64,000 bases of DNA from the IMG/VR virus record IMGVR_UViG_3300014204_013734, positions 96,001 through 160,000 of that record, one strand, 5' to 3'. The position numbers and the translations under genes are program-made. The notes beneath the pieces are model-generated. The model made no database searches, had not been told where the DNA came from, and saw nothing but the letters and a program-made list of their open reading frames with translations. Below, piece after piece: positions 4,525-61,090 of this stretch. Origin of the DNA: a virus. Lineage: Duplodnaviria; Caudoviricetes. Each line of letters begins with the position of its first letter. The first letter of the stretch is position 1.

Positions 4525-5508
4525 ATGAATAAGCTGGCTTCAGGACGTGTAGCCTTGCGCTGGTTCCTGGCGACGGTCAACACGACTGAATATGACCAGT
4601 TTCTTCGCTTACAGGTTCTGGAAGGCGCCGCAGGCGTTCCCGTGGATACTTGGTGGAGGGATGGTTGGAAGTCTGCAATCCGGCAGATGGAAGACAAATT
4701 TGCCGGAACCAACATAAATCCGGCCTGGTTGGACCCGAAAAATTCCGGTATGTTCGGAATTGTCGAATCCGCCCTCAATTCCGCCATCAGGAAATACAAA
4801 CTGAGTGCGGATCCGGATGAATTCCTTGACCATGCCCTTATGGGCTTGTCGCCGGACTTGACCAAAATCAGGGAAGTCCGTCCAGCTTGGCATGCAGGCA
4901 TGAAAGGTTCTGAAGGAATCAAATCAGGGAAAGAAACCCCAAGGTCCATCGGGGCAGGGCCCCTTGCTACGTACCTTATCCGTTTCGTAAAGCGGGAATC
5001 AGACAAGATTCACAGCTTGATGATAGATTCTCCTGAAACCGACGAACGTCCCATTGATTACGCGGACACCTCGGCCGAGGAATCTTCCGCCGGGTCTTTC
5101 CTTACGAAACTTGTGTTTGAAGACATGGATGACCCCATGGGGAAGAGAATCCGGGAATTCATGAAGAAAGTTTGGAAATCAAAATATCCCGACATGGTCA
5201 CATGGTTGACTATGTTGGAAAAGGGAACCCTTCCAAAAACCAAACAAGATTTTGCTAAATCCATCAACAAAGTCCCTGAACAACTTCAGGATATCTTTAA
5301 CCCGGCATGGAAAACCTTCGCAAAAGCCCTTTGGTCAGGATCAGGTGAAGCTAACAAGCTTTTGGAAGACCTTGAATTGTATTTTATGTCTAAAAGGGTC
5401 CCTTGGTTCTATTCTGAAGACCAGCTTCTTGAAGTCACCAGACAGAAAGTCCTGAATGAAGTTGAAAGACTTCGTCCAACCCACAAGAAATCTTTTTTGT
5501 GGGTTTAA
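4525..5508 (+). CDS. Sigma-factor-like protein with N-terminal RVALRW tag
   Basis: ADPDEFLDHALMGL...LATYLIRFVKRE resembles sigma region 2; KTKQDFAKSINKVPEQL is HTH-like. Start uncertain (4456/4483/4525). Confidence 0.45.
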   Translation: MNKLASGRVALRWFLATVNTTEYDQFLRLQVLEGAAGVPVDTWWRDGWKSAIRQMEDKFAGTNINPAWLDPKNSGMFGIVESALNSAIRKYKLSADPDEFLDHALMGLSPDLTKIREVRPAWHAGMKGSEGIKSGKETPRSIGAGPLATYLIRFVKRESDKIHSLMIDSPETDERPIDYADTSAEESSAGSFLTKLVFEDMDDPMGKRIREFMKKVWKSKYPDMVTWLTMLEKGTLPKTKQDFAKSINKVPEQLQDIFNPAWKTFAKALWSGSGEANKLLEDLELYFMSKRVPWFYSEDQLLEVTRQKVLNEVERLRPTHKKSFLWV

Positions 5509-6290
5509 AGATTTTTCTTGACTTTTTCTTGAAGGGATGACAACATCCCTTTTGTGTTTAGTTGTTTCACCCAGGTTCACTGAAAACTTTTCAGGTTGTC
5601 GTTGGAAACATCCCGGTAAGCTTTTCCTTTCTTTCAGGAAGGCCCGCACTCGGGACATAGGAAGGAACCTCCAAAGGGTTTGGAATCCTTTCTGGATCCA
5701 ATGATCGGGAAACCGATACGGAAGCCATTGAGCTAAGCAATCGCCGTCAAACAAACCTGGGTGTTGAAAATCAAACCTTTCCTTGGAAAACTTCACCTGA
5801 GTCCCAAGGAAAGAAAAGGATGCAAAGTCCACGGCGTGTCCTTCCGATCCTGTAGTTAGGATCAATGGACCCGGGGAAAGGTTTTAAGGAAGATCAGGTG
5901 GTCTTCCTAACCGTTAAAACCGTTTCCTTCAAACTCGTCGTAAACCCTTTTTCCTTCAACCCCCTTTCCCCCAAGAAAGAAAAGAAGAAGGAAGGAAAGT
6001 AGGGAGCCCGTAGGGCGACCGTGGCAAAAGAAATAGTTACCTAACGGTTAATGATTCTGATGATTCTGGTTTCTTTGATTCTGAAATTGAAGTTGTTACT
6101 GTTCCTGTAAGCTTTCTTGGTTAAATTAGTACGGATGATTGTTTACCTGTTTCTTCTTGTCGTTTCAGTCCTTAGAGTAAGGGATGGAACTAGACAATCT
6201 AAAATTGAGGATCCCCTGGATCCAAGGGTGAGGTGTATTTAAAAATAGTCCCTTGATGGATTTCCTATGGTACTTCCTTAATTGGAGGTC
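5509..6290. other. Long non-coding, hairpin-rich region; candidate replication origin and/or structured ncRNA
   Basis: No credible ORF. Several stem-loops, a pyrimidine/purine inverted tract, three TGATTCTG repeats, and an apparent A+C-rich to G+T-rich switch across it. Confidence 0.45.
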
Positions 6291-6293
6291 ACT

Positions 6294-6740
6294 ATGGAAA
6301 TCCTGGTTGAAAATGAAATCAGAAATCTTGCCGTAGGGTGCCTGCATGTTATTTACGGAAGGGCTTCGGTAGAATTTCCTACGTCTACCAGAGCACATCC
6401 GTCTTATTGGGTTTTCGTAGGGTTAAACTTCTTTGGACCCTTGTCAGATGAATACCGAACGGTATTTCCTTTCCGTGTTTGGTGGAAAGTTTGGAAACAG
6501 GTTATCGTTCCGGTTGTTAAGGATTCCTGGAATCAAAACATATCTCTTCCAGGGACTTTGGATGACAAACTAGAAATCCTGATAGCAGAACTTACGAACC
6601 GATTACGTCTATCAGGAATGATTCCTGATAGCCCTTCCGTAGAAATCCCGGATAATCAAGTAAATCCTACTCAAGCAGGTTTTTATGGGAATGCTTGGTG
6701 GGTTAGACTCCACTTCAAGTTGGAAGACCTGTCTGAATGA
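6294..6740 (+). CDS. Hypothetical protein
   Basis: ORF with GGAGG Shine-Dalgarno before ATG 6294. Confidence 0.65.
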   Translation: MEILVENEIRNLAVGCLHVIYGRASVEFPTSTRAHPSYWVFVGLNFFGPLSDEYRTVFPFRVWWKVWKQVIVPVVKDSWNQNISLPGTLDDKLEILIAELTNRLRLSGMIPDSPSVEIPDNQVNPTQAGFYGNAWWVRLHFKLEDLSE

Positions 6741-6816
6741 AAATGAACAAGTTAGCTTGTCAGGTTCTTCCTTCCTTGATTGCTGGTTCCTCTTCTTTTG
6801 GGCTTGTTAGGAAGGT

Positions 6817-7023: not shown

Positions 7024-7064
7024 GGGTACGCTTTCCGGGTAACTTTTCCCGGAGGTGGTTAACC

Positions 7065-7673: not shown

Positions 7674-7675
7674 AA

Positions 7676-38376: not shown

Positions 38377-39234
38377 GTGTCAACGTCCGTTTCCAGGGTT
38401 GTCGCTAGGTGGGAAATCCGCCAAGCAGCGAGGGTCATCTGTGGGACCCGGTCTTTCCGGTCTCGTCAGGCCTCCCTTTCCGGTTTGACACCGGAAGCCC
38501 TGGAAGCGTTCGCTTCTTTCTGGATTCCCCCGAAAGGAAAAGTGGCTTTTGGGGGAATCATCAAGCGTTTGAAGCAGTTGGCGGAAGCCTTCAAGAAAGC
38601 TCCCCGTCTTTGGGAACAATTCAAGAAGGTTATAGGAGCGGAAAGTTTGGCTGATATCCCTGGGGCAATTAAGGATTTGGCGAAAAAGGGGCGGGATGTC
38701 CTCAAAGGGGTAGTCGGCAAACTGTTCGGGACGTGGCCTTTGAAAATCTACACCTTGGAGAAAAGCAAGCTTTTGAGTTTCCAGACAATTTTGGATCGGC
38801 TTTTGAAGAAGCATCCGAAATTCACCCATTGGCTTGATTCCAAAGTAAAACCAAAGGTTAATCAATTTGATATTTGGTTGCGTGAAAATATTCCTGTTGT
38901 TTCAAGGGCTTTGCTGGTAGCTGTTTACTTTTTCATCTGGTTCAATGTTATTGAGTTTGAATGGGATTTCCATTCCCTGACGGAAGCCTTGACGGGAAAT
39001 ATGAGTTTGGTAGATCTTCTTGGAAGCTTGCCAAGTTCCGCCGTCGGGGCGTTGTTAAGTTCTCTTGGGTTGGGGATGTTCTCCCTTCTTCCAGCAGCTT
39101 TTGTTGCCCGTCTTGCTTGGTTGATCGCCCATAGATACGTACATTGGACGGGCAAGGGCTTTGAATTTGATATGGAACGGTTGTCCAACGATTTGGGGAT
39201 GTCCGTTCAGGAACTTGAAGCGGAAGGCATCTGA
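38377..39234 (+). CDS. Membrane protein with N-terminal RVVARW tag
   Basis: Hydrophobic segments ALLVAVYFFIWFNVI and AVGALLSSLGLGMFSLLPAAFVARLAWLI. Confidence 0.7.
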   Translation: MSTSVSRVVARWEIRQAARVICGTRSFRSRQASLSGLTPEALEAFASFWIPPKGKVAFGGIIKRLKQLAEAFKKAPRLWEQFKKVIGAESLADIPGAIKDLAKKGRDVLKGVVGKLFGTWPLKIYTLEKSKLLSFQTILDRLLKKHPKFTHWLDSKVKPKVNQFDIWLRENIPVVSRALLVAVYFFIWFNVIEFEWDFHSLTEALTGNMSLVDLLGSLPSSAVGALLSSLGLGMFSLLPAAFVARLAWLIAHRYVHWTGKGFEFDMERLSNDLGMSVQELEAEGI

Positions 39235-39235: not shown

Positions 39236-39889
39236 ATGTCGGATTCTACAACGAAGGTCGCTACCCGTTGGTTGCTCGCCCATTATACCAAGACCGCTGG
39301 TGAAGTCCGATTCATCAAGGACAGGGGTGGTGACGAGAAGCAGTGGGGTTGGTCTCTGCAAGGGCCTTCGCAGCGGGAAATGCCCGCTGAATTTACGTTT
39401 GACCCCAGGAATCTGAAACCTTTGGCCCGGACACTGAGATCAGCCTTGGCCGCCTTGGGGCATACGCAGAGTGCCTACAACACGTTCACGAAGATCAAGT
39501 CCGCTACCGTGTCCCCTGACGGCAATCTTGGGGGAAAGGGATACATCCAGCGGATTACAGACATTCGGCGACAGTGCATGAACTGTTCAGAAGCGTTGTC
39601 GTCGGTTTGTGACACCCTTTATGATGAAATTCACGCCGCCCACTGGAATCCTACCATTGCAGAGCAGAGTCCACGTGAACGTGAAGAGGTCGTAGACATC
39701 ATGGAAGATGTGGACGATATTCGTCAGTCCCCCGAAAGCTGGGCGGAAGGCGAGGAAGAAGAAATGGACGAAGAAGGTGCTGGTGGGGAAGGTGGTTGGG
39801 AAGGGGAAGGGGAAGAAATGAAGACGGAAAAGATGGCTATGATTCACAGGGTAGCATTCCGTCATGCTATGGAACGGAGGATTTCATGA
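39236..39889 (+). CDS. Hypothetical (probable virion) protein tagged at both termini
   Basis: N-terminal KVATRW...KTAG, acidic stretch, C-terminal RVAFRH. Confidence 0.75.
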   Translation: MSDSTTKVATRWLLAHYTKTAGEVRFIKDRGGDEKQWGWSLQGPSQREMPAEFTFDPRNLKPLARTLRSALAALGHTQSAYNTFTKIKSATVSPDGNLGGKGYIQRITDIRRQCMNCSEALSSVCDTLYDEIHAAHWNPTIAEQSPREREEVVDIMEDVDDIRQSPESWAEGEEEEMDEEGAGGEGGWEGEGEEMKTEKMAMIHRVAFRHAMERRIS

Positions 39890-46780: not shown

Positions 46781-46791
46781 AAGGTCTAATA

Positions 46792-49700
46792 ATGAATCAG
46801 GATGAAAAAGTGGTCAAGAAGATACCCATCAGGAAGGGTATCGTTACGGGTCGACCCAACAAGGTTGTCACTTCAGCCATGCGGTCTAAAGTGGCATTTC
46901 CGACTTCCGGCGGTACTATCACGGGTTCCGGCGGGAATTTCTATTCTCCTGAACTGTCGACTGACTTCCTTGAACTCCCCCAAAGTATCAATGAACGTTG
47001 GAATTACTATCGCTTTTTCTATGACAACGAACCCTTCGTCGGGCAGGCTATAGATCTGCATACGGAACTTCCCCTTTCAAAAATCCGTCTGGTGCCGCCG
47101 GAAGCCAAGAATAGAGATTTGGCTCAGCAGGCGTTGACCTTTTGTGAAAAATGGTCCAAGAACATTCGGCTTCTTCACCGACTCATTGCAATCGTCCACG
47201 ATTATCACCTGATTGGGGAAGTGTACGTCTTTGCCGAAGACACTTCTCCTGATCTGCCACAGGATGTCCGGCAGGAACCCTTGCGGGAAATCACTTCCGA
47301 AGGGGAAGCCATAGAACGTTGGATAGATCGTCCTGACGCGGATGCACGGGCAATTGATTGGCTCAAGAGAAATTACAAGGGGTGGTCCGCTTTGAGGGTG
47401 CTTCCCCCTGAACAAATCCACATGACGTCATTCCCGTTCACTGACGAAAAAATTATTGAACTGGTTCCGGATTCTAAGACCAAGGACATTGTGGAAAAGG
47501 CTGACGCCGGGGATCTTCAGGCTGTCAGGGTCGTGGAATCCATGCCACAGGACATCATCCAGGCAATCAAGGAAGGTAAGAATATCCCCTTGAATACCGA
47601 TCCTGATGCCGGGTCTTTCGTTCATTATCTGGCTCGGAAGCGGAGTGATTACGACGAACACGGCAAGTCCATTCTTCAACGGTGCCTTCTGCCTGGAACA
47701 CCTATTTGGATCAAGCGGCATGGGACTATCCAACAGATTGCTGTGGAAGAGGTGAATGATTCCACGGATCTTTTGTTGACTCACCTGGGCCGGTTTATGC
47801 CTTGTAAGGCAGGAACCCGCCCGGTAGATGAAGAAATCACCGTCCTTGAAATCGAAGGTGTTGAAGAACCTTTGAAGCTGACTTCCGACCACGAAGTCCT
47901 TCGTGTCCTTGAAGACGGGTCTGAAGAGTGGGTTGCAGCAGGCAAACTGCAAATCGGGGATATTGTTCGGGAAAGTCATGTCCTTCTCGATGGAAATCCG
48001 GATGGAAATCCGGCAATTCCTTATCATTTCAAGAACATTGACATGGTCAGTTGGTGGTCGGGTCGTATCCTTGATTCAATCAAGCGCGGCAGACCCGGCA
48101 CAGATTTGTTGGAAACAGAACGGAAAGTTGTCGTTGAAGCTATTCATCCTGATGGGAATGGTATTGTCGTATCCTTCCGTCATGAAAATGACAATCGGAA
48201 CCGAGTGAAGATTAGTCCTGTGTTGGAAAAGATACTTTCTTGGGCGTTTAGCCTGGAAGTTCCCGTTGTCAAAACGCAGGCGGAAGTAGCTGTTCTTGCA
48301 GGGGTGTCGGAACGTGATGTTAGGATGTACGTCCCCCGTCTCCGTAAAGAAGGTCTGCTGAAGACGGAAGTCAGGTCCCTTGGCAGGGGGAAGGGTCAAT
48401 CCGTGACGTGGTTCCCTGCGGTAACTGGGACGCTTCCCCCTATTATTACAACCCTGTCTTCCCCTATCAGGAATATTGCCGTTGATGAAAATTTCTGTTG
48501 GTTGCTTGGGGCATGGTTTGGGGATGGTTTCGTTTGGACGGAACACGAAACTTTGTTGAACGTTGACTGTGTCGGATGGTCCCTTCACGACCAAGATGTT
48601 GAAGCTAAGGTCGTGGAATTGGTTGATAAGTATTTTGGTTCTGTGAATGTGAAGCGGGGTTGTCTCGTTGACAAGAACACGGATTCCGATGACCTTCGCA
48701 TTGAAGACCCCCTTTTGGCCCGTTGGTTTATGGAAGAATTTGGGTACACGGCACAAGGTAAGCAGATGCCCGAATGGCTTTTCCATCTTCCCGAAAGTTA
48801 CGTCCTGGCTTTTCTTCGTGGTCTGTTAGACACGGATGGTTGGATAGGGGTTGATACGGCATTTCAGATTGGGTTCGGCATGGACAATAAGGTTTTGATT
48901 GACCAGATGCACCTGTTGTGTAATCGGGTCGGGATCAAGACACATGTTGGGAAAAACCATAAGAAGGAACGTTCCTGGACAAGAACCTGGAACACCAAGA
49001 AGGGTGTTCGGGAAAAGACCTATGATTACGAAGCCAAGACTTATCCGACTTTGACTTGTTCTCGTTCCGAAGATGTTCGGCGATGGGCAGGGGAAGGAAG
49101 TATCAAGGGTTCCAGGGTTGAATGGGTAGACAGGGAACCAGACAACCGTAGGGGACCTAAGATGATCGGCGGATGGCTGGTCCACAGGATTGCTTCGGTT
49201 TTGAATACCCCCTACAAGGGTCCGGTGTGGTCGTTTGATGTTGAAGAGGATACTTCTCATTTTACTTCAATCATCACACATAATTGTTTGAGAACGCTGG
49301 TCTTCAGAGACAAGATTCGGCAGGCGCATACGTCCATTGCTTCTCGACACATGACGCCTTACCGGGTCATTTATGCCGAAAATATGAATGATGACCAGAC
49401 GGAAGCCTTGCGTGATCAAGTAGACTTGGCTTTACAAGACCCCGACTATTCCATCATCACGAACTTCGCGGTGACGTGGGAAGAAATGGGCGCCGATCAG
49501 CGGTTGCCCGACTGGTCTTGGGTGTGGGACATGACGGATCGTCAGCTTTATGCCGGTCTCGGCGTAACTGAAAGTCTGTTGTCCGGGGAAGGGGCCTATG
49601 GGGGTGACAGACTTCACCTAGAAGTTATCAACACCAGGTACATGTTACTGCGTGAAATCCTTCAAGATTTCGTTGAACATGATCTGTTCCGTCCTATGTG

Positions 49701-50070
49701 TGCAAGGATGGGGTTCGTTGAGGAAGACGATGAAGGGAATGTAGAACCTTTGGTTCCGCGTTTGTCCTTCACTCGTCTTGCTTTGCGTGATAATTCGGAC
49801 ACCTTTGACGCCTTGTTCAATCTCTACCAGAAGGGCAGCCTTGACATTGACATCATTCTGGATCTTCTCAACATAGATCCGGTAACAACCCGAGAAAAGC
49901 TGCAACGGGATGTGTTCACGTTGAATGATTCTTCGTTCAATGAAGTTTTACGGGGCATCTACCAGAAAGTCGGGGATCTTTTGGTAGAAGGTTCCGATGT
50001 TACGGAAAAGATTGCCGAAAACCTTGGACTGGTGTTCAAGAAAGTCAAGGAAGGCGGCGAACGTTTCTGA
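46792..50070 (+). CDS. Portal protein with intein (about 558 aa after splicing)
   Basis: Follows terL; YRFFYDNEPFVGQAIDLHTELPLSKI...DYHLIGEVY...GKSILQR/CLRTLVFRDK...AGLGVTESLLSGE pattern is typical of portals. Confidence 0.8.
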   Translation: MNQDEKVVKKIPIRKGIVTGRPNKVVTSAMRSKVAFPTSGGTITGSGGNFYSPELSTDFLELPQSINERWNYYRFFYDNEPFVGQAIDLHTELPLSKIRLVPPEAKNRDLAQQALTFCEKWSKNIRLLHRLIAIVHDYHLIGEVYVFAEDTSPDLPQDVRQEPLREITSEGEAIERWIDRPDADARAIDWLKRNYKGWSALRVLPPEQIHMTSFPFTDEKIIELVPDSKTKDIVEKADAGDLQAVRVVESMPQDIIQAIKEGKNIPLNTDPDAGSFVHYLARKRSDYDEHGKSILQRCLLPGTPIWIKRHGTIQQIAVEEVNDSTDLLLTHLGRFMPCKAGTRPVDEEITVLEIEGVEEPLKLTSDHEVLRVLEDGSEEWVAAGKLQIGDIVRESHVLLDGNPDGNPAIPYHFKNIDMVSWWSGRILDSIKRGRPGTDLLETERKVVVEAIHPDGNGIVVSFRHENDNRNRVKISPVLEKILSWAFSLEVPVVKTQAEVAVLAGVSERDVRMYVPRLRKEGLLKTEVRSLGRGKGQSVTWFPAVTGTLPPIITTLSSPIRNIAVDENFCWLLGAWFGDGFVWTEHETLLNVDCVGWSLHDQDVEAKVVELVDKYFGSVNVKRGCLVDKNTDSDDLRIEDPLLARWFMEEFGYTAQGKQMPEWLFHLPESYVLAFLRGLLDTDGWIGVDTAFQIGFGMDNKVLIDQMHLLCNRVGIKTHVGKNHKKERSWTRTWNTKKGVREKTYDYEAKTYPTLTCSRSEDVRRWAGEGSIKGSRVEWVDREPDNRRGPKMIGGWLVHRIASVLNTPYKGPVWSFDVEEDTSHFTSIITHNCLRTLVFRDKIRQAHTSIASRHMTPYRVIYAENMNDDQTEALRDQVDLALQDPDYSIITNFAVTWEEMGADQRLPDWSWVWDMTDRQLYAGLGVTESLLSGEGAYGGDRLHLEVINTRYMLLREILQDFVEHDLFRPMCARMGFVEEDDEGNVEPLVPRLSFTRLALRDNSDTFDALFNLYQKGSLDIDIILDLLNIDPVTTREKLQRDVFTLNDSSFNEVLRGIYQKVGDLLVEGSDVTEKIAENLGLVFKKVKEGGERF
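47683..49284 (+). mobile_element. Portal intein (534 aa, LAGLIDADG, extra HTH)
   Basis: Starts CLLPGT; TSDH; LGAWFGDG and LRGLLDTDG; VWSFDVEED; ends ITHN before Cys. Confidence 0.9.
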
Positions 50071-50142: not shown

Positions 50143-53100
50143 ATGCAGCAGACAGTTTCCAGCGCAAAAGACGGCAGAAAGACGGGGGACGGGTCCGGGG
50201 TCGGATTTTTCATTCCCCTTCCTCCTGATCTTGGGGCGCAGTTCCCTGACCTTGGGGATGAAGACCGCAGCAATCCGCATACGACATTTCTTTACGTTGG
50301 GGAAGTTCCTGAAGAACGAGAAGCCGAATTCCTGGAAGTGTCTGCCCGTGTCCTGGGGACGTTGGGCGGTCTTGTTCGGGGTTATCTTGATCACCTTGAC
50401 TATTTTACGCAGCCAGACAAGGACCGGAAGGTCGCTGTCATGGCGATTCGGTTTGACAAGGATCTTGCAGCACTTAGATGGAATCTACGCGATGCCCTTC
50501 TTGATGCCGGTTTTCAGGTAGCTGATGGATTCCCCCTTCTGTACAAACCGCATGCAACTATCCAATACATGGAAGGACTTGGTTCCGAATGGAAAGGTCA
50601 TGTCCCTTCCGGGTCATGGTCATTTGACAGGATGGAAGTTTGGGGTCTGCCGAAACTGCATTCCGTTTATTTTGGTGAATCCGTGGAAGGACGTGTAGCG
50701 TCCAGGTTCCTGGAATCCATGGAACACGGGGTTTCGGTTGCCTTGATGAAGTTCTTGTCGGATGTTGCCAAAAAAGCAGGCGTGTCAAAAAACACCTACG
50801 TAGTAGGCGGGGCCGTTCGTAATTTCATTTTGGGGGTGCCCGTCAAAGACGTGGATGTCGTGATAGATTCCATTGCTTCGGGCAAGGATTCCGCATGGTT
50901 CGCCAAAAAGGTCAAGGAAGCGATTCCCGTCCCAACCAGTTTCGTGACCAATCAGTACGGTGTTGCATTGCTGACGGTGAAGGGGGATTGGTTCGTTGAT
51001 GGGGCTAATCTGAATGGGGAAACCATAGAGATTGCCAACGCCCGGAAGGAATCCTATGGTGGGGAAGCGGGCCAAGGTTACAAACCCCATATGGTCGCTC
51101 CTGCGACCATAAAGGAAGATGTCATCAGGCGGGATTTCACTTTCAACACCCTCATGTGGCGTCTCCATGATCTATCTTCCGGTCCCGATGCGGCAGAAAT
51201 CCTGGATATAACCGAATGCGGATTGAAGGATCTGCAGGCGGGGGAAATGCGGTGCCCTTCCGATCCTGACAAAACTTTTTCGAATGATCCTTCCAGATTG
51301 ATACGGGCCATAAAATTTATTTTGAAATACGGATTCAAGGTTCCCCCGGAAGTGGAAGCTTCTATTCGCCGTAACGGTCTGAAGCTCAGAAACGTCCCTC
51401 CTGGTCACCTTAGCAACATGATCATTGAATTGTTCTACGAAGGTGGGTGGGGTCGGCGTGCTTTGGAAGAAATGGACAAGTTGGGACTCCTGGAAGTCAT
51501 CAAAGACATAGCTAGGACGGACAAACCTTTCAGGGAAGCCTTGTCCAATTGGGCAGACCGCAAGGCTGACATTTCTTTCCTGTTTGACCTGATTGACATC
51601 GGGATGCCGACCGGAAGGCGTTTGAACTTCCTGACACAACCGCAGAAGGACCGTCTCAGGGAAATAACCGTACAATGGCCTGCTGAGAAGTCCGACGAAT
51701 TTGTAAACCTGCTGGAACAGCCTGGGCGCATCAAGGGTCTTGCTTTCGGGGGATTGATCCAGGAACTTGGGCTTCAAGGACCAGGAATCAAGGCGTTGAC
51801 CGACACCGTTCGCCAACGGCTTCTTGACGATCCTGATTTGGTCAGAAATCCTGACAAGCTCAGGAGGTTGGTCGGGTTGGGGAAAACGGCCGGGATTGAC
51901 AAACCCTTGGACAAGGACTGGTTGATGGCCGTCCGACGGGGATGGTTGAAATTGATGAATCCTGCTATCCGTGATTACGGCGATGTGCTGAAAGCGTTTA
52001 ATGCTTTGGATGCCTTTGCCGAAAACTTGCAGGATCAGGTGCTTAATGTCAGGCGTGATCTTTTTACGAACGATGTCAGAACTGACAAGGTAATTGCCGG
52101 CATCAAGAGGCTTCGGGAAGCAATTTCGGATTCCAGATACCATGCGAAGTTTTGGTCCGAGTGGCTTGACGGGACATCCGTGGGTTTTCGGTTGGGGGAA
52201 GATCGGACCGCAGATGCCTTGAAGATGTTGGAATTGTACCGCACGAATTTTTCTGATGCTTCTGGAACTTCAGTGAAGGGGCGTAAAAGTCCCAGCAACC
52301 CTTGGGCGAATAGCCGACAGGTTCCGTTGACTTATATCCTGGACGCGGTTTTGAAGGGGCTTTACGAAATTGCCAAAAAGAATCTGGAAGTAGGGGAGTC
52401 CGGGGACATACCGGAATATGAATCGTTCTTTCGGGAATTTTCCCTGGGAGGCATGAAGATTCTTATCAGTGATCCGAAAACACATGGTAAGGCGATAGGT
52501 GCCTATGTCCGTCAGATTGGTAAGGCAAAGCATCTTTTGGAAGCGGCTGGATTCGCCAAGGATTGGCGTGGGTTGATGATGGTCCAGTCGTCTGATTGGC
52601 ATGTTTTGACTGACACGGAAAGGGAAATATATCGGCGCAGAGGTTATGACATTCAGGAAACTGCGGGGCAGTATAGAAGTGGATCCGATTCCATTGTCCT
52701 GACTTCCCCCCCGGATTGGTCTTTGGTATTGACAATCGTGCATGAGATCGGACACCGACATTGGTCCAAGTATTTGGATGTTTCCGACAGAAAACGTTTC
52801 GCGGACTGGATTGCCGAAGGTTTGGCTCCGGTCAGCGACTACGGGAAAACCAATCCGTCAGAAGCTTTTGCAGAGGTATTCGCTCATTATGTGAATCGAA
52901 AGAACATGACCAGAGACCAGTTGGAATCCTTCAAAGCAGTGGTCAATAAGACGGCGTCCGAAAAAAAGGTGTTGAAAAACAAAAAAGGCTGCTTGATTTT
53001 GGCTCGTGTAGGGGGTTTGAGTCCGGTTAGGCAGCGCAACGAAGCGGCGCCTGCCCGTAAAGGGTTGTGGGCCTTTCTATGGCCTTGGTTTGACACTTGG

Positions 53101-56100
53101 TTGCTTAGTGGCACGAATGCTAGGGGGTGGCTTGAGAATCAAGATCAAAAAGGGGGCACGCGGTTGGAGGATTTCAAGCGCGAAGGCTACCGGAAATTCA
53201 AACATTGCGGTTATGTGTGGACGCATTTTGATATTCCAGGAAAAGAAGTTTTGACTAAAGGTCATTGGAATTTGGTTCATTCCTCGGATCTGGCGCGGGA
53301 AATTCCTCGGATATACAAGAGCGAACTTAAAGCTTTACGGAAACAGTATTGGGAAGATTCTAAAACCCCTACTACCCCGGCCGGAGTTGAAGAACAGAAA
53401 CAGCAATCCCTTGAATTTGCGGAATATTGGATACGTCGTCAGGACTGGTCCGAAATGTGCGAGGTGTTTGTTGAACCCCATATGGCGGACAAGACGGCGG
53501 CATTCACTGAAAGCGACTTGGAAACTGCCACCAAGGAGTTTGAAGAAGTTGTACAGCGTCTTACTGACAAGAGGGCCCTTTTTGAAAAAGCCTTTGCAAA
53601 CGAAAACGTTGATGACCCAAGGTATTTGCGACACAGGAAAATTGGGCTCAAGGCATGGATGGAAAAACCTTGGGCCTGGTTGGTTTTTAACGGGAATAAG
53701 TTGTCAAGAATCGTGTTGGAACGGAAATCAGTTCCTTCTGGGCAGGGGAAGGCTTTGGAAATGGCGGCTCGGACTTTCATGTCAGCCAAGCGTTTTCCTG
53801 CAGATTTTGAAGGGTGGATGGCCAAGAATTCAAAGTATGTGGCTTTCCTTCTGAATGCCGCGAAAACTTGGGAAGACAAGAAAGAAGGGGGTTCAGAACT
53901 ATTCAAGATCGGTCCATTCACTGTCCACAATACCATCGGGGCGGCGGATGCCGATTTGGAAGGTGTCCGAAAGATGTTTGAAGCAGCAACATCTGCTGTC
54001 GGACGATTGGGCGGGGATTATTCCGATTTCAAGAAGGTTCTTTACGGAGATGTGCTTGTCGTTGCCCGGTTGAGTCAGCCTAAAGTGATGGCTTGGTATA
54101 CCCCCAATGAGGATGCTGTTTATGTCCGGCAGATGAAGACCGCCGGGATTGACGATGTCCACAATCTTATTCACGAATTGGCTCATCGGTTTTGGAGAAA
54201 GTTTGCGGACGCTAAATTGAAGGCGCGTTGGGTACAACGTGATGACATTGTGCGGTGGGGGGATGATTGGTTCAAGGGTTTGAAGTTGCCTGGGATAGGG
54301 GACACCCTTCCAATTATCTTGAACAAGCAAAAGTATCCTAAGATTGTTGATTTGGACGCCAAGGTTTACAAATTGGCGGTGCCAACGATTTTGGATCCTT
54401 ACAATACTGTTTCCATCCCTCGGACCAAGGTTTTGGAATGGGTTCGGGAAGATGCCAAGAAGGAACAGTTTCCTACCCCCTATGCCGCCAGAGGAGGGGT
54501 AGAAGAACACTTCTGCGAAGCCCTTGCCCTCAAGGCACTCGGTAAGCTCCAGAAGAATCACGAAGAAGCTCTTGATAGAGTGTTCAGCGGGGAACCTGAT
54601 CCGAAGGAGATTGCGTTTGTCAAGGATGTTCAGGAGGCCCTGCGGAAACAGAATCCGTCTGTTGTAGCGTTCCGTCATCTGAAAAAGGCTGGGTTTTTCA
54701 ATGTTGGGGATAAAATTTGGTTCGGCAAATATAAAAACAAAGCCGGGATTATAAAGGGCTTTTCACGGGACCCAAAAGGCAATCCGACCGTCATCATTTC
54801 CCCTGTACCCCAAGGACGGAAGCAAGACAAGGAATTTGGCTTGTACAAAATCTGGCATGCCGATCCTGCCAAAAAGGTTGCCGTCCGTTGGATTTTTGGT
54901 TCCCCTGTCAGGGAACCTTGGCAAATGACGTTTGATGAGTTTCGGCGTGAAGTCAAAACCCAAAGAATTGAATGGAAAGCTGTTCAGACGTTTGAAGATT
55001 TTTTGAAAACGAAGAAGGTTGATCCAAAAGAGCTGCCTTCCCTTGAGGAAGAAGCTGACGTTTTGGGGGGTTTGCTTTTCAGTCGTCCAAATATGACGCA
55101 ACATGAAAAAGGTCGTTTGAAAGGAATTGTCCACAAAAAAATGCTAAAGGATAAGCTTGTTAAGGAATGGAAAGACACCGTGGACAAGGTTGAAACCCAC
55201 ACTGATCTTGATTTATCTAGAAGTTCCGATGCTGCCTATTTGAAGGTCCAGCACAAACGGGCTATCAGGAAGGCATTATCTGAAGGGAATCCAGTTCCTT
55301 CCGAAGTTCTTGCAGAATATCCCGACATCAAAACCGGGATGCGTGTCGCCCAGGATGATAGATGGGATCGTCGGAAGCCAGAAGCGTTCCGAACCCTGAT
55401 TCCCGAAGGTATTTCTAAGAGAATTTACCAAGAACAGATCGGGGAAGTCGGGGGTTTCAAGGTGTGGTTGGTAGACGGCATCGTAATTCGTGACAAAATT
55501 GATATTGATTTCACGGCAGGAGGGAACCCGTCAAGGTACGGTTACATTCCTGCGGATGAAATTTGGTTGGAAAAGACTGGGGATTCCCCATTCAGGAATT
55601 TTGATTTGGCCGCTACCTTGATTCACGAACTTGTTGAATCTTGGGTGATGTCAAACTTGGGGTGGGATTACGACAGGGCTCACGACACGGCTTCCAAATT
55701 TGAAAAGGGGTTCAGGAAGCATCCCCGACTGGTGCCGGAGAACCGGATTCTTTTGATTGCGGAATTCTTGTACCGGAAATGGTTGGGGAGTTCCATGTCG
55801 GGTCGGGTTGCCGCCCGTTACAAGGACAAGAAGACCGTTAAAGATAAGAACGGCGACGACATGGTCGTTTACGAATACAGTGACCGACAGATCGCCAACA
55901 GGAATCGGGAAAAGGCGGAACGGGTTGAAAAGCTCCGCGGCAAGTTGGACAAGCTGGTTTCTCAGGTCAAGAAAGACCTGAAGTCTGACGATGAAAAAAC
56001 CCGCATGACCGCCTTGGCGGTTGGGTTAATTAATGACGTGTACGAGCGCGTTGGAAATCCAGGATCCGCCAAGGACGGTCATTTTGGGGTCACTGGTTGG

Positions 56101-59100
56101 CTTGTCAAGCATGTGTCCTTTTCCGATGGGAAGGCCCTTCTTAAATATGTTGGCAAGTCGGGGGTTGAACAGGACAAGGAAACATCGGACGCTGGTTTGG
56201 TGAAAGCGTTGAAGGATGCCGTCAAAGGCAAGAAGAAGGATGATCCGATCTTTGAATTTGATGGAGGTCGGATCAGTTCAGAAACGGTGAACGAATATCT
56301 GAAACCTTTTGACATCACGGCGAAGGATATCCGTGGACTTCACGCCAACAAAGAAACGCAAAAGGCGTTGAAGGCTATCCGGGCTAAGGGCGGAAAGCTT
56401 CCAGAGGATAAGAAAGAACGGGAAAAGAAGCTCAAGGAGGAATTCAAGAAAGCTGTGGAAGAAGCGGCGGAAATCGTTGGACATGAACCTACCACACTTA
56501 AAAATCTGTATTTGGTTCCAAATCTGTACGAGGCGTTTATTGAAGACGGGACGGTCAAGGAAAACCTAGCGAAACAGAAAACAGCGTCCGTTGCTGCGGT
56601 AGATTTGGAAGAACAATTGAAGCTGTTGTCTCCTTCAGACCGTCACCGGTACGATGAACGGTTGAAGGAGGATCAGGAATTTAGGACTAACCAGGCTGTT
56701 ATCTTTTTGGATCGTCGTGTTCCGAAAGATCAGGTTGTCCGTCTTGAAAAGGAACGTTATCAGAAAATTTACAGGTTGTTGAAGGAATCATATAAGAAAG
56801 CACTACGAGATGGAAAAGATGTTTGGGTGCGAGGTGTTCCACAACTTCTTCCCTTGTTTTACAAATATGCCGTTGAAGCTTTGTCCGCTGAATTTCCAGG
56901 ACTTTCTTTTTCCAAACCTGTTGGATTTCTGATGAAAGATCACCAGAAGCCCCTTCGTTTGTGGGATGAAGCTGAGTATATCCATGACTACGTGGAAAAG
57001 AACCTGGGGAAAATTCATCGTGCTACCAAGACGCACGGGGAAAGGGAAGACGAGGAAGTCGCCGAATTGGTTAAGCCCTTGCCTAAGAAAAACCCCCCCA
57101 GGAATGATCTCCGGAAGGAACGCATGGAAGAGAACGACGGAGATGTAGGAAACCAGGGGGCCGACGAAGATAAAGACATGTCCTTGAATTACAAGCGGGT
57201 TGCCAACCGTTGGATTGAAGGAACCCAGAAAAAGCTATCTCCTGATCAGGAAACGCTTTTGCGTTCTTTGTGGTACAACGGGGATGATGCTGCTTTGGCG
57301 ACGTTCTTGGATTGGCCACGTTCCAAAGTCAAAAGAATTGTAGACCAGTTGCAGAAACTTGGTCTTGTGATTGTAGATTCCGACGGGATCATACAAGAAA
57401 ACACAAAGACAAATAGGATTGCCAACCGTTGGTTTCATTCCAAAAAAGACCTCATCAACGTTCGGAGAAAGGAAGATGGCAAGGTCGTTCAAGTCACCGA
57501 AGAGACCTTGAAGGAATCCCCTGATGAATATGAAACCTTGGAAGAAGGGGAACCCGAACCCGAACCCAAACCCGAACCCAAACCTGAACCTGAAAAGAAA
57601 GTTTGGGAATCAGATATGGGTTTGGTCAAGGATGATCAAGGCAAGGTGACTGGAGTTGATAAAGGCGGTAATGCCTTCAAGGAAACAGCCAAGGAATACG
57701 GGAAGGACACTGTTGAACTGGTTCTTTTCCTGCGTGCCTTTGCGCAGGGGGCCAAGATCAAAATCCCCCCTGCCCTTGCGAAAACGAAAGCCTGGAAGGA
57801 AATCTCCGATTATCCGGTTGAAACCAATCCGGCCCTTGTCAAGGGACTTTTGGAAGCCAAAGATTCCCCCTACAAGGAAGTTTTGGATGCGTTTGACGCA
57901 GCCACATCAAAGGGGAAACCTTCAATCATTCCCGAAAAGAAAAAAGAAGTTGAAGCCCCGACGGTCCAGGAAGGTGAATCCAAACCTGTTCCCAAACCGG
58001 AACCCGTTCCGGCCGTTGAAGAACCCGATACATCTGAAAAGGACTTGGATGCCGTTGTTGGTATGCTGGAAGTTGATCCTGACATGCAGGATGCTTCAGC
58101 AAAAATCACCAAGCGTTTATCCGACCCTAAAACCAGAGAAGAAGCGGTACGGGCATACCGGGAAACCTTTGACGAAGTCATGAATGAATTGAAGAACCAA
58201 GGGGGGGAAGGATTTGATGTGTCGGAATCCATGGCTACCGACCTTGGGGATGCTTTAAAGAATCCTGCCGGAGGGCGTGACGGAAAAGATTTGGGTCGCG
58301 ATTTAGCCCTTCATTCCATCGCCAAGCGTTTGGCGGATCCTGCTAATTTGGACGGGGTTGGTCTTTCGGAAGAGCCTTTGGATGAAATGACCCTTATTGA
58401 TCGGGGTGATCGTGCCCTGGAATTTTATGTCAAGTTTCCCGCTAATTTCCGTCAGGAAGTTGCTCGCCAAATGGTGGATAGGATCAGGGAAGCTAAGGAA
58501 AAAGGCGGTCCGCAAATACAGGAACTTGAACGCATTACTGCGGGTTTGCAAGCTGCTGCAATCGTTCATGATGATTTCAAGGACAAGAGGAACAAATGGC
58601 CCCTTTCTATTTCCCGTCCCGCCCCTGTTTTTAATGGGATTGTGAAATCTCTTTATGAAAAAGGGGATACTCGGGTTGTTGCGTCTTTCGGTATCGGGGC
58701 TCAAGGATTAGCTACGCCGGAAGGTCGGGAAAAATTGCGGCAGGCATTGGATTCCCTTGATGAAGATGAATTGTTTGAAGCGTTGGGCGGGGAGAAGGGC
58801 GAATGGGGTTTGATGATCCGAAACCTTAAGAAAGGGGGTTTGAGGGAAAAGGACAAGGCATGGTATTTGAATTTCATGAAGGAAATGACTGTTGGTGAAG
58901 TTACGACAGGGAATACGGTAGTGATGCAGGCGGCTACGAACGCCCAGGAAGTGAAGGCAAAGGCGGATAAAGAAAGAGAACGTAACCGGGAAGTGAAGCC
59001 GACTTCAGCCCAGATGGAACCTTCCTGGTCGGACTTAATTGATCCTAAATCCGAAAACACCATCGGGGAAGCGGCGGACGCTGTTCACAAAGATGCCCAG

Positions 59101-59439
59101 GGACGATTGCGGAAATTGCTTGAAGCTCTTTCCAAATGCTTCTTCGCTAAAGACGAAGCAAAAGGATTCCGGGATTGTTGGAATTCTTATTCTCATGGGG
59201 TCGGTATAGCACGTGGTAGCACCGGGAAGTTGGCCTTCAGTTCGGAGGAAAACGACGCCCCTAAAGAAGAAGAGATTTTAGGGTTTTTCCAGCTTCAACA
59301 GGCGGGGGCTTACCTGGAATCGGCGGAACGGAAATTCGGTCCGTTGCCGGTCAATAATCCACTGAAAGTCCAAATCCAGACTGCAATTCGTTTGGATGAT
59401 CCTTCAGAGTTGGATAAACGGTACGTACAGAAGAAATGA
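50143..59439 (+). CDS. Giant polyvalent protein: 2H phosphoesterase, CCA-type nucleotidyltransferase, three zincin-like domains, topoisomerase IB, wHTH and unknown domains
   Basis: PHTT/PHAT; GGAVRN..KDVDV..EDVIRRDFTFN..DPSRLIRAIKF; HEIGH, HELAH, HELVE; ERVGN..VGKSG..KDIR..GH..LY. Confidence 0.88.
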   Translation: MQQTVSSAKDGRKTGDGSGVGFFIPLPPDLGAQFPDLGDEDRSNPHTTFLYVGEVPEEREAEFLEVSARVLGTLGGLVRGYLDHLDYFTQPDKDRKVAVMAIRFDKDLAALRWNLRDALLDAGFQVADGFPLLYKPHATIQYMEGLGSEWKGHVPSGSWSFDRMEVWGLPKLHSVYFGESVEGRVASRFLESMEHGVSVALMKFLSDVAKKAGVSKNTYVVGGAVRNFILGVPVKDVDVVIDSIASGKDSAWFAKKVKEAIPVPTSFVTNQYGVALLTVKGDWFVDGANLNGETIEIANARKESYGGEAGQGYKPHMVAPATIKEDVIRRDFTFNTLMWRLHDLSSGPDAAEILDITECGLKDLQAGEMRCPSDPDKTFSNDPSRLIRAIKFILKYGFKVPPEVEASIRRNGLKLRNVPPGHLSNMIIELFYEGGWGRRALEEMDKLGLLEVIKDIARTDKPFREALSNWADRKADISFLFDLIDIGMPTGRRLNFLTQPQKDRLREITVQWPAEKSDEFVNLLEQPGRIKGLAFGGLIQELGLQGPGIKALTDTVRQRLLDDPDLVRNPDKLRRLVGLGKTAGIDKPLDKDWLMAVRRGWLKLMNPAIRDYGDVLKAFNALDAFAENLQDQVLNVRRDLFTNDVRTDKVIAGIKRLREAISDSRYHAKFWSEWLDGTSVGFRLGEDRTADALKMLELYRTNFSDASGTSVKGRKSPSNPWANSRQVPLTYILDAVLKGLYEIAKKNLEVGESGDIPEYESFFREFSLGGMKILISDPKTHGKAIGAYVRQIGKAKHLLEAAGFAKDWRGLMMVQSSDWHVLTDTEREIYRRRGYDIQETAGQYRSGSDSIVLTSPPDWSLVLTIVHEIGHRHWSKYLDVSDRKRFADWIAEGLAPVSDYGKTNPSEAFAEVFAHYVNRKNMTRDQLESFKAVVNKTASEKKVLKNKKGCLILARVGGLSPVRQRNEAAPARKGLWAFLWPWFDTWLLSGTNARGWLENQDQKGGTRLEDFKREGYRKFKHCGYVWTHFDIPGKEVLTKGHWNLVHSSDLAREIPRIYKSELKALRKQYWEDSKTPTTPAGVEEQKQQSLEFAEYWIRRQDWSEMCEVFVEPHMADKTAAFTESDLETATKEFEEVVQRLTDKRALFEKAFANENVDDPRYLRHRKIGLKAWMEKPWAWLVFNGNKLSRIVLERKSVPSGQGKALEMAARTFMSAKRFPADFEGWMAKNSKYVAFLLNAAKTWEDKKEGGSELFKIGPFTVHNTIGAADADLEGVRKMFEAATSAVGRLGGDYSDFKKVLYGDVLVVARLSQPKVMAWYTPNEDAVYVRQMKTAGIDDVHNLIHELAHRFWRKFADAKLKARWVQRDDIVRWGDDWFKGLKLPGIGDTLPIILNKQKYPKIVDLDAKVYKLAVPTILDPYNTVSIPRTKVLEWVREDAKKEQFPTPYAARGGVEEHFCEALALKALGKLQKNHEEALDRVFSGEPDPKEIAFVKDVQEALRKQNPSVVAFRHLKKAGFFNVGDKIWFGKYKNKAGIIKGFSRDPKGNPTVIISPVPQGRKQDKEFGLYKIWHADPAKKVAVRWIFGSPVREPWQMTFDEFRREVKTQRIEWKAVQTFEDFLKTKKVDPKELPSLEEEADVLGGLLFSRPNMTQHEKGRLKGIVHKKMLKDKLVKEWKDTVDKVETHTDLDLSRSSDAAYLKVQHKRAIRKALSEGNPVPSEVLAEYPDIKTGMRVAQDDRWDRRKPEAFRTLIPEGISKRIYQEQIGEVGGFKVWLVDGIVIRDKIDIDFTAGGNPSRYGYIPADEIWLEKTGDSPFRNFDLAATLIHELVESWVMSNLGWDYDRAHDTASKFEKGFRKHPRLVPENRILLIAEFLYRKWLGSSMSGRVAARYKDKKTVKDKNGDDMVVYEYSDRQIANRNREKAERVEKLRGKLDKLVSQVKKDLKSDDEKTRMTALAVGLINDVYERVGNPGSAKDGHFGVTGWLVKHVSFSDGKALLKYVGKSGVEQDKETSDAGLVKALKDAVKGKKKDDPIFEFDGGRISSETVNEYLKPFDITAKDIRGLHANKETQKALKAIRAKGGKLPEDKKEREKKLKEEFKKAVEEAAEIVGHEPTTLKNLYLVPNLYEAFIEDGTVKENLAKQKTASVAAVDLEEQLKLLSPSDRHRYDERLKEDQEFRTNQAVIFLDRRVPKDQVVRLEKERYQKIYRLLKESYKKALRDGKDVWVRGVPQLLPLFYKYAVEALSAEFPGLSFSKPVGFLMKDHQKPLRLWDEAEYIHDYVEKNLGKIHRATKTHGEREDEEVAELVKPLPKKNPPRNDLRKERMEENDGDVGNQGADEDKDMSLNYKRVANRWIEGTQKKLSPDQETLLRSLWYNGDDAALATFLDWPRSKVKRIVDQLQKLGLVIVDSDGIIQENTKTNRIANRWFHSKKDLINVRRKEDGKVVQVTEETLKESPDEYETLEEGEPEPEPKPEPKPEPEKKVWESDMGLVKDDQGKVTGVDKGGNAFKETAKEYGKDTVELVLFLRAFAQGAKIKIPPALAKTKAWKEISDYPVETNPALVKGLLEAKDSPYKEVLDAFDAATSKGKPSIIPEKKKEVEAPTVQEGESKPVPKPEPVPAVEEPDTSEKDLDAVVGMLEVDPDMQDASAKITKRLSDPKTREEAVRAYRETFDEVMNELKNQGGEGFDVSESMATDLGDALKNPAGGRDGKDLGRDLALHSIAKRLADPANLDGVGLSEEPLDEMTLIDRGDRALEFYVKFPANFRQEVARQMVDRIREAKEKGGPQIQELERITAGLQAAAIVHDDFKDKRNKWPLSISRPAPVFNGIVKSLYEKGDTRVVASFGIGAQGLATPEGREKLRQALDSLDEDELFEALGGEKGEWGLMIRNLKKGGLREKDKAWYLNFMKEMTVGEVTTGNTVVMQAATNAQEVKAKADKERERNREVKPTSAQMEPSWSDLIDPKSENTIGEAADAVHKDAQGRLRKLLEALSKCFFAKDEAKGFRDCWNSYSHGVGIARGSTGKLAFSSEENDAPKEEEILGFFQLQQAGAYLESAERKFGPLPVNNPLKVQIQTAIRLDDPSELDKRYVQKK
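57550..57594 (+). repeat. Pro-Glu/Lys linker repeat (gaaccc/aaaccc hexamers)
   Basis: EPEPEPKPEPKPEPE. Confidence 0.85.
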
Positions 59440-59559
59440 AATCCAAAAAGATGAGACTTTTTACAATGGTTAGCTTATGTCAACGGCAGTAGTAATAGAG
59501 GGCATGCGTGTGCCCATGCTGCTGTCCGACTTTCAGGCTGCCATCCAAAGGAGGAGCTT

Positions 59560-60507
59560 ATGGCCAAGAAACTGACGACGAAGGGCGCGCTGTCCGTTAC
59601 AGGTAACCTGGATCGGCTCGCAAATTTGTTCCAGACGGAACACGAAACCTTGGGTGTAGAACCTAAGGTTGCTCAGGACTTCGCATATCGTTGCGATCTT
59701 CTCAGCGACGCCATTGAAAAGACTGCAGGTGTCGATCGGGTTGCGTTGACCGAACTGGATGTAGTCCAGGAATCCGGTTACGACCCTGAACAGATCGGCG
59801 AGGAAAAGGCCGGTCCTATGATTGGTGATGCCGACGAACCCTACATGAAGGGCAATTTCGGTCAGGAAGAGAAGCGGGAACTCCGTTATGACGTGGAACA
59901 GGGCAAGATTGGTCCTGACCGTATCGTCCCTGAACAGAAACCCCTCCAGCCCGGCAAACAGGCCGGATTTGAAGTTCTTGGCAAGCAAGCCGCCGTCAAC
60001 AGTTTGACCGGTTATGAAGGGGTTTTCCGTGATGCTTCCCTTCGGTTTGCCAACGCCGGGAATACCGATCTTGCCAAAGCGTTCTTGAAGCTTGCAAAGT
60101 CTACCATGGATGCCCAGGTTGGTATCCTTACGGGAACCCGTTCCGCAAGCAATATCAGTCGCCTCATGGAAGCAATCAAGCTTCTCGCTCCTCATGTCGC
60201 TGCCGTGAATCCGGCTTCCTACGGTGAAGTTTCCAAGATGGCAGACCTGGTTTTGAAGGTTGCCGGTGAAGACGAAGAAGAAGAAGACGACGACGACAAA
60301 GAAGACGCAGAACCGGAAGATTCCAAGGAAGCCAAAAAGGCTGGGAAGAAATCCGAAGACGAAGCCAAGGATGATGACAAGAAAGACGACAAAGACGAAG
60401 CCAAAGGCAAGGACGAGAAGAAGGATGAATCCAAAGAAGACTTCCTGAAGAAGATGCAGGAAGGCAAGGACAAGAAGTCCAGCCACGGTTTCAACCTGTC
60501 GGAATGA
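59560..60507 (+). CDS. Probable head scaffold/core protein with charged low-complexity tail
   Basis: Strong AGGAGGAG SD; lies between portal-linked polyprotein and protease; D/E/K-rich C-terminus; several KxA[GA] sites. Confidence 0.6.
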   Translation: MAKKLTTKGALSVTGNLDRLANLFQTEHETLGVEPKVAQDFAYRCDLLSDAIEKTAGVDRVALTELDVVQESGYDPEQIGEEKAGPMIGDADEPYMKGNFGQEEKRELRYDVEQGKIGPDRIVPEQKPLQPGKQAGFEVLGKQAAVNSLTGYEGVFRDASLRFANAGNTDLAKAFLKLAKSTMDAQVGILTGTRSASNISRLMEAIKLLAPHVAAVNPASYGEVSKMADLVLKVAGEDEEEEDDDDKEDAEPEDSKEAKKAGKKSEDEAKDDDKKDDKDEAKGKDEKKDESKEDFLKKMQEGKDKKSSHGFNLSE

Positions 60508-60511
60508 AGAA

Positions 60512-61090
60512 ATGACCCGCAAGAACGCGACATTGTCAGTTAACTACCAACAACGGGCGAAGCTATTTGCCGTAAACGATATTGTTTACCCGTTTTGGGG
60601 TTCCGCCGAAAAGACGGGACGTGTCGTGGCGGTTTACCCGGCAATTGGGATGGTTGATGTCGAATGGCCACACGGAAATGACCGTGTACCCGTTGAGGAC
60701 CTTCAGCAACTGAATCCCCACAGTCTGTTCCAACCTCCGTCCATCCCTGCCGGGGAAGATAGTATCCCCGGTGGGGCTGGGCAGGTTTCCGTATCCCCAG
60801 GACCAGTTAACAAAAATTCAGCTCTCCGTGTGGCGGCCGCTTTCATTAAGAAAGCCCTTTATTGGGCCGACAAAGACCGGCAGTACAAGGCCACGCAAGG
60901 GGAACTTGATGACAAGTGTTACCATTGCCCGAAGTGCGGGGAAGAACTGCGGAAGGCAATCTACAAACGTCGTGATGGCGCCAGTGTCCATCTTCTCGGT
61001 TGCGGAACATGCTTGTTCCTGATCAAAAAAGAAGACATCATTGGCGATCCTGAATATGCGGGTCCGAACATCGAAATAGAAGGTGTTTGA
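60512..61090 (+). CDS. Hypothetical head-module protein (SH3-like + zinc ribbon)
   Basis: GRVVAVYPAIGMVDVEWP; RVAAAF..KKA linker; CPKCG...CGTC. Confidence 0.75.
   Translation: MTRKNATLSVNYQQRAKLFAVNDIVYPFWGSAEKTGRVVAVYPAIGMVDVEWPHGNDRVPVEDLQQLNPHSLFQPPSIPAGEDSIPGGAGQVSVSPGPVNKNSALRVAAAFIKKALYWADKDRQYKATQGELDDKCYHCPKCGEELRKAIYKRRDGASVHLLGCGTCLFLIKKEDIIGDPEYAGPNIEIEGV

Follow-up and report, generated by a model that had tools for sequence, protein, structure and literature searches.

The window analysed here, a stretch of 64,000 nucleotides, comprises bases 96001-160000 of the 381,280-bp genome of an uncultured phage (IMG/VR record IMGVR_UViG_3300014204_013734) and carries nearly all of its genes on the + strand. 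A short peptide, called the tag below, recurs in it with the strict form [RK][VI]A.R[WFYH], both near the ends of unrelated stand-alone proteins and inside a 3098-amino-acid (aa) protein encoded beside the portal gene. The initial annotation had read this peptide as a code addressing cargo to the phage head, and all 12 hexapeptides that it listed were recovered by translation, in coding frames and at the positions it gave; they are real peptides, of which VVAFRH, DVATRW, RVVARW, and RVAAAF are variants outside the strict pattern. The tagged features of the window are as follows:

4546..4563, + strand: RVALRW, near the N-terminus of the protein at 4483-5508, 7 or 21 aa past two candidate starts
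34208..34225, + strand: variant DVATRW, 9-12 aa past the start of a 99-aa protein (34172-34471)
38377..39234, + strand: protein g, 285 aa, with hydrophobic C-terminal segments and the N-terminal variant RVVARW at 38395-38412
39236..39889, + strand: protein h, 217 aa, tagged at both ends (KVATRW at 39254-39271; RVAFRH at 39848-39865, 7 aa before the stop)
50143..59439, + strand: predicted polyvalent protein of 3098 aa with six tags, which are the next six entries
50692..50709, + strand: RVASRF, aa 184, at the border of the N-terminal module and the nucleotidyltransferase
54661..54678, + strand: variant VVAFRH, aa 1507, in a predicted helix 15-16 aa before the GD..GKYKNK beta-module
54874..54891, + strand: KVAVRW, aa 1578, in a predicted helix immediately past the beta-module
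55804..55821, + strand: RVAARY, aa 1888, at the start of the topoisomerase IB (TopIB) module, overlapping the signature AA[RK][YF]K.KK
57196..57213, + strand: RVANRW, aa 2352, past an acidic low-complexity linker, at the end of a widely shared module that finishes '..LNYK'
57415..57432, + strand: RIANRW, aa 2425, past a winged-helix-turn-helix-like unit

Counted against within-protein shuffles of the genome's open reading frame set, the strict motif occurs 12 times versus 0.85 +/- 1.0 in the shuffles, and its Trp-only form, [RK][VI]A.RW, occurs eight times in the 381-kb genome versus 0.16. Because this pattern was chosen after the data had been seen, independent support was sought from homologues and from a position-specific scoring matrix trained solely on the tag copies in the giant proteins of other phages, with this phage excluded; at a cut-off of >=11 bits, the foreign-trained matrix found 18 sites in this genome versus 0.4 in shuffles. 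None of these 18 sites lies in a replication gene, and the tag is absent from the replication and transcription enzymes, so that the motif exceeds shuffled sequence and is missing from the replication proteins, where the initial annotation had not noticed it either. Arg, Val, and Ala codons vary synonymously between tag copies; it is therefore the peptide that is under selection, and a DNA-level motif was ruled out on this ground.

Relatives in public metagenomes repeat the pattern. Across 110 homologues of the giant protein (1,700-4,500 aa), 159 strict tag copies were counted versus 1.6 in shuffles, and 87 of 153 comparable copies are non-redundant, with flanks <55% identical to one another; the motif, which had been proposed for a search in related genomes, is thereby conserved across >100 related huge phages. 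No close relative with the giant protein was found in viral_contigs, and in LR745208.1, an INPHARED record, the tag is hardly used across the 40-kb region around its TopIB, which makes that record of no use as a replicate. Among stand-alone proteins, the clearest case is protein j (genome 170178-170564), which has 116 homologues: those of ~130 aa nearly all end with a Gly-rich variable linker, the tag, and a few variable residues, and an alignment of 93 sequences gives 2.5, 2.9, 2.1, 2.5, 4.2, and 1.5 bits for R, V, A, R, Y/W, and L, with position 3, most of the linker, and the tail below 1 bit; distant j homologues have variant tails such as RVVERH and SVAERH. In the family of protein g (81 representatives at <=50% identity), ~30 members start with the tag, mostly after M plus 5-7 residues, at residues 5-16 overall and at 6-8 in most; in two fused g forms, the tag sits at the joint between an upstream domain, HAD being one such, and the g-like domain. 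Orthologues of protein h keep both tags in L012 and L016, and in L014 the C-terminal tag with a weak N-terminal variant. Purifying selection on the tag with diverging flanks is thus seen in three stand-alone families, at the C-terminus (j), the N-terminus (g), and both ends (h). As a stand-alone protein, the 2H phosphoesterase also has the tag at its N-terminus (L005:2772-3251 and P0228); this stand-alone family has a single homologue, likewise tag-started, and carries little statistical weight. Where 2H is the first module of the giant protein, or a split-off gene as in L015, the tag follows it.

Placement in the stand-alone proteins of this phage is strongly terminal. Ten of 20 sites lie within ~12 aa of the start or within 9 aa of the stop, where 10% would be expected by chance (P ~8e-6). 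The N-terminal copies lie 6-7 residues past start codons equipped with a ribosome-binding site (genome 86867, 92234, 134377, 135236, and 348772), and the C-terminal copies precede the stop by 5-9 residues (genome 88260, 135848, 170526, and 288860). Two claims of the initial annotation are borne out here: the tag is a portable unit on unrelated proteins, found at N-termini, at C-termini, and between modules with no position dependence, and the same enzyme types (2H, HAD, and the g-like domain behind HAD) occur tagged either alone or strung into polyproteins. In total, ~15 proteins of this phage are tagged in addition to the 3098-aa chain, and the putative cargo would include a hydrophobic protein, a papain-like peptidase, and RNA-repair-type enzymes, together with the modules of the giant protein. 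Of the ten tagged stand-alone proteins that were scanned, most had no match in Pfam or PHROGs; searched by fold against the PDB, the j model gave generic helical hairpins only, and an Atlas look-up of protein h yielded nothing informative. The label 'sigma-like', given initially to the 4483-5508 protein, finds no Pfam or PHROG support and is dropped.

The core of the tag is [RK]-[VI]-A-x-R-[WYFH]-[LIM], frequently with a Ser cap and with a residue at -2 or -3 that is small or hydrophobic. Conservation falls on V-A at positions 1-2, the aromatic residue and Leu at 5-6, and Arg at 0 and 4, leaving 3 and 7 free, and this i, i+3/4, i+7/8 rhythm is, judged from the sequence, the signature of an amphipathic helix. 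In the AlphaFold model of protein j, a helix of its own coincides exactly with the tag, set apart by an unstructured linker from a confident helical hairpin and a third helix. In a model of residues 1490-1600 of the giant protein, an SH3/KOW-like barrel is confident, and each of the two tags beside it forms a helix of lower confidence; in both models, the tag helices are of low to moderate confidence beside confident folds. We think that the tag is an amphipathic helix of two to three turns, ~12-18 residues long, carried on flexible linkers or free ends.

Within the window, the giant protein uses the tag most intensively. By its domain content, it is assigned to the polyvalent proteins, as a portal-adjacent late gene encodes many unrelated catalytic domains including a zincin-like one: its domains comprise 2H, a CCA-type nucleotidyltransferase, zincins, a KOW/SH3-like module, TopIB, a winged helix-turn-helix, and others (Pfam detects Topoisom_I, PolyA_pol, and a weak ATLF-like zincin), and homologues add NUDIX, RNA ligase, ART-PolyVal, and InPase. 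When the protein was compared with its homologues by BLAST, 43% of the alignment ends (n=680) fell within 20 aa of one of the six tags versus 7.7% for random positions (P ~0.0005). The proposal that tags mark domain boundaries accordingly holds for the borders of homology blocks, although not every border is marked and none is at residues ~190-1500. Likewise, RVAARY, reported as preceding TopIB, does stand at the opening of that module, and it overlaps a TopIB-specific N-terminal signature, AA[RK][YF]K.KK. In these head proteins, TopIB modules (55804-55850 and homologues) begin with a basic leader, AA[RK][YF]K.KK.V, which is conserved and coincides in part with the tag consensus.

The SH3/KOW-like 'GD..GKYKNK.G' beta-module (54680-54870, aa 1513-1576) is present in 61 or more of the 110 homologues of the giant protein, often at their extreme N-terminus, straight behind a tag or a DUF5661 helix. 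A strict tag lies exactly 15-16 aa upstream of nine of these 61 beta-modules, which corresponds to 9 of the 159 tags. This module was considered as a reader of the tag and set aside: the flanking helices are of low confidence and not clearly docked in the AlphaFold model, and only those nine tags precede it.

The setting of the giant gene is a head module in the order large terminase, portal, 3098-aa protein, scaffold-like protein, 192-aa protein, and prohead protease. Its members in the window, other than the giant gene, are:

44353..46233, + strand: large terminase, untagged, marker of the head module
46792..50070, + strand: portal protein with an intein, untagged
59560..60507, + strand: acidic scaffold-like protein, 315 aa, with a conserved HGFNL C-terminus and without a conserved tag
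60512..61090, + strand: 192-aa head-module protein
61087..64000, + strand: prohead protease, intein-interrupted and continuing beyond the end of the window; intein-free orthologues have no tag

Directly past the window follow an acidic EF-hand protein, a 232-aa protein, and a major capsid protein of ~294 aa (phrog_2522 match), and the order terminase, portal, giant protein, scaffold-like protein, protease, and capsid protein is kept here and in seven relatives. Tagged genes cluster in and around this module, with h and g directly upstream of the terminase and j a few kb downstream of the capsid gene. The core head proteins are untagged. The 192-aa protein consists of a KOW/Tudor-like domain, a G/P linker, a conserved tag-like helix, and a zinc ribbon, and is encoded directly upstream of the protease gene. 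Its helix contains RVAAAF, which the initial annotation had counted as a variant tag; it is a related, conserved element distinct from the tag, with a residue other than Arg at position 4 and its own consensus, R-V-A-x-x-aromatic-[VIA]-K-x-A-x-Y-W-A (RVAAAF IKKALYWA at 60827-60868). We regard this 192-aa protein as a candidate adaptor. In two relatives, a DUF5661 domain is inserted immediately before its tag-like helix.

Taken as a whole, the peptide is most probably a portable helix through which cargo docks and is loaded into the head, a reading to which we assign a probability of roughly one half. The tag would attach accessory proteins, i.e., RNA-repair-type enzymes, the papain-like peptidase, the hydrophobic protein, and the modules of the giant protein, to a common and highly conserved acceptor in the assembling prohead, and the tagged proteins would then be enclosed in the head and later delivered along with the DNA. 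Tag use is densest in the giant protein, whose gene stands between those of the portal and the protease in every relative examined; tagged genes lie within the head module of all these relatives, and the structural core has no tag. A tag that sits on accessory proteins, is dense beside the portal, and is absent from the core forms the pattern expected of docked prohead cargo, and its independence of position (N-terminal, C-terminal, or internal) is what a docking peptide would exhibit. Polyvalent proteins have been proposed to be packaged and injected (PMC5512222), and the domain repertoire here (TopIB, CCA-type nucleotidyltransferase, 2H, and zincins, with NUDIX, RNA ligase, and ART in homologues) overlaps theirs. 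Further, a near-invariant acceptor is plausible: in phages whose scaffold-like proteins share only 37-47% identity, the capsid proteins are still 87-90% identical. We hold more tentatively, and would not back at even odds, the fuller proposal that one ~12-residue helical peptide serves as a clade-wide capsid cargo address, usable at either end or between modules and in several copies per chain, and is read by a near-invariant head component, possibly the 294-aa capsid protein. The modular head-cargo system put forward in the initial annotation thus stands in so far as the tag is portable, conserved, and clustered at the head genes; that its partner would be a head component and that tagged proteins would be packaged, we infer from gene position and from analogy with polyvalent proteins and T4.

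Several observations count against head loading, in addition to packaging being argued from gene order and analogy. No reader protein was identified for the tag, and INPHARED contained two distant records only, with no cultured relative found. The 1300-aa stretch of the giant protein at residues ~190-1500 holds several domains and no tag. Several tagged genes are remote from the head module (at genome 86-94 kb, 100 kb, 288 kb, and 348 kb), and two of these distant genes, a and e, share an upstream element that occurs nowhere else, which leaves their timing ambiguous. Protein g has hydrophobic, membrane-like segments, which would fit an ejection or channel protein but also a role outside the virion. 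A co-fold of the capsid protein, residues 1-135 of the scaffold, and the 192-aa protein with the tagged tail of protein j scored 0.00, with controls not run, and speaks neither for nor against docking.

Since the tags lie at module borders of a protein that has zincin domains of its own, the motif might instead be mainly a processing site, cut by the prohead protease or by those zincins, with the terminal copies as leftovers of gene fission or as trimming sites; [RK]-V-A also resembles the 'x-A' P1 preference of assemblin-type proteases. Autoproteolysis of polyvalent proteins was proposed by Iyer et al. (PMC5512222). We nevertheless judge this explanation unlikely. The scaffold-like, acidic EF-hand, protease, and capsid proteins, which are the usual substrates, have no conserved tag in 7-8 phages, and the portal also has none; the tag is therefore probably not the general prohead-protease site. 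Conserved copies lie 6 aa from the start or 5-9 aa from the stop, where cutting would achieve almost nothing, and conservation that spans >=7 residues with a helical rhythm and leaves the would-be P1' position free does not resemble the known sites of phage proteases; the helices modelled on the tags likewise speak against a cut site. The tag may nonetheless be cut as well as docked.

About equally improbable, in our estimate, is docking on a hub other than the capsid (ribosome, RNA polymerase, membrane, or chaperone), or a role in gathering RNA-repair enzymes into one complex. Many tagged proteins are of RNA-end-healing types (2H, HAD/PNK-like, and CCA-type nucleotidyltransferase) that could act jointly, several of their genes lie outside the head module, and hubs such as the clamp and SSB recruit their clients through short terminal motifs; on the other hand, the tag is used most densely between the portal and protease genes and in the head-module genes of every relative examined, is missing from replication and transcription enzymes, and is so constant across the clade that a near-invariant phage acceptor, e.g., the capsid protein, fits better than varied hosts. 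A signal for phage-nucleus import or a clamp-binding motif was likewise rejected by reasoning, as the replication enzymes are untagged and the capsid protein is small (~294 aa, matching major-head-protein PHROGs), unlike the large phiKZ capsid protein. Least credible of all is that the copies have no shared partner and are a generic inherited linker or capping helix spread by module shuffling, such as an N-terminal helix of the beta-module or the TopIB leader. The nine beta-modules of 61 with a strict tag exactly 15-16 aa upstream, the 23 of 154 copies in other giant proteins that coincide with the TopIB leader, and the recurrence of identical flanks such as 'DPAK' would suit it, but a beta-module follows just 9 of the 159 tags, flanks are unrelated among the 87 non-redundant copies, three unrelated stand-alone families retain the tag at free ends behind variable linkers, and the models do not pack it confidently on a neighbouring fold.

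Comparison with known systems places the docking helix among capsid-targeting peptides, which are known from T4, the HK97 protease tail, the P22 scaffolding protein, and encapsulins. The T4 capsid-targeting sequence of internal proteins and Alt is an N-terminal leader of ~10-19 aa that ends in the gp21 site L/I-x-E and is removed; the likeness is a short peptide sending unrelated proteins into a prohead, whereas the T4 signal is N-terminal only and the tag, of other sequence, is N-terminal, C-terminal, or internal, with up to seven copies per chain and no L/I-x-E following it. Encapsulin cargo peptides are terminal, sit on a flexible linker, are read by an HK97-fold shell, have a GSL-type consensus, and bind in extended form, some cargo carrying several copies. 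A short conserved terminal peptide behind a linker on unrelated cargo is likewise found in j, where the linker is Gly-rich, and in the tagged proteins g, h, b, and n, yet the consensus here is [RK][VI]AxR[WYFH][LIM], looks helical, and belongs to a system whose shell is a phage capsid, with binding to the capsid protein hypothetical. The C-terminal capsid-targeting region of the HK97 protease and the C-terminal helix-turn-helix of the P22 scaffolding protein are helical tethers inside the procapsid, each found in one protein, whereas the tag is common to ~15 proteins of one phage and to its clade. In phiKZ-like phages and SPN3US, many head and ejection proteins share a three-residue protease site ending in Glu; one short signal common to many proteins is the likeness, but that site is present in core head proteins too, and here they are without the motif.

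The polyvalent proteins described by Iyer, Burroughs, Anand, de Souza, and Aravind in 2017 (PMC5512222) resemble the giant protein in being portal-adjacent multi-enzyme proteins with zincins, nucleotidyltransferase, and 2H, and ART, NUDIX, and RNA ligase are shared with its homologues; processing has been proposed for that class too. A term search of PMC5512222 and of a 2021 jumbo-phage survey (PMC7824862) returned no short peptide shared between module borders and stand-alone ends, and no paper describing the motif or a clade-wide portable tag in polyvalent proteins was found in the literature searched. Capsid-targeting peptides and polyvalent proteins are both known, and the tag is a well-supported case of a helical motif with a sequence of its own that functions wherever it is placed.

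Should the tag prove to be a head address, the proteins that uncultured huge phages bring into the cell could be listed from sequence alone; here, the list would be ~15 proteins plus the 3098-aa enzyme chain, and among them would be RNA-repair enzymes, peptidases, a topoisomerase, and a membrane-active protein. Such an address would explain the interchange of polyvalent proteins with stand-alone equivalents, as it would move along with the module, and as a small, transferable handle it could serve to load foreign proteins into phage heads, a phage counterpart of the encapsulin targeting peptides. Even with a partner outside the head, a clade-wide, strongly selected motif of unrelated proteins would point to an undescribed hub interaction.

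Several further observations concern the head genes and the surroundings of the tagged genes. The 294-aa capsid protein is encoded at genome 162833-163717 (L002:2833-3714) with orthologues in L009, L011, L012, L014, L016, and L017, and phages in which it is 87-90% identical have giant proteins that align over part of their length only; constraint on the shell protein appears unusually strong from these alignments. Between the protease and capsid genes, all relatives encode an extremely acidic protein of ~490 aa (genome 160428-161906; L002:428-1906) with EF-hand-like DxDxDG repeats and a conserved C-terminal 'LW.S.PDVS..F', which may be a calcium-binding core or scaffold protein. The AT-rich spacers upstream of the tagged genes a and e share the 16-mer CGGTGAAATCCTTATA (window ~4410-4450; genome ~86810-86850), whose core has two occurrences in the whole genome and which may be a promoter of unknown class; a promoter shared by the tagged genes in general was not retained, as the k-mer comparison gave this one element only, common to two genes.

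A second terminal peptide, ~[IL]A(A/S)EHPE(T/M)R..LVP(I/L)(L/I)K, occurs in the window at the C-terminus of 42321-42668 and the N-terminus of 43894-44349, at genome 183706-184182, 185491-186048, and 186781-187251, and in relatives (L009:62-771 and L011:3481-4398). It lies ~10 aa from the N-terminus in two small proteins, at residues 15-41 in two open reading frame calls, and 5 aa from the C-terminus in a fifth, and it may mark a paralogue family or be a second address-like tag. Finally, inteins with homing-endonuclease domains interrupt the ribonucleotide reductase (several; 8712-15638), portal (46792-50070), and prohead protease (61087-64000) genes, and inteins in relatives sit instead in the terminase (L012 and L015) and the protease (L015).

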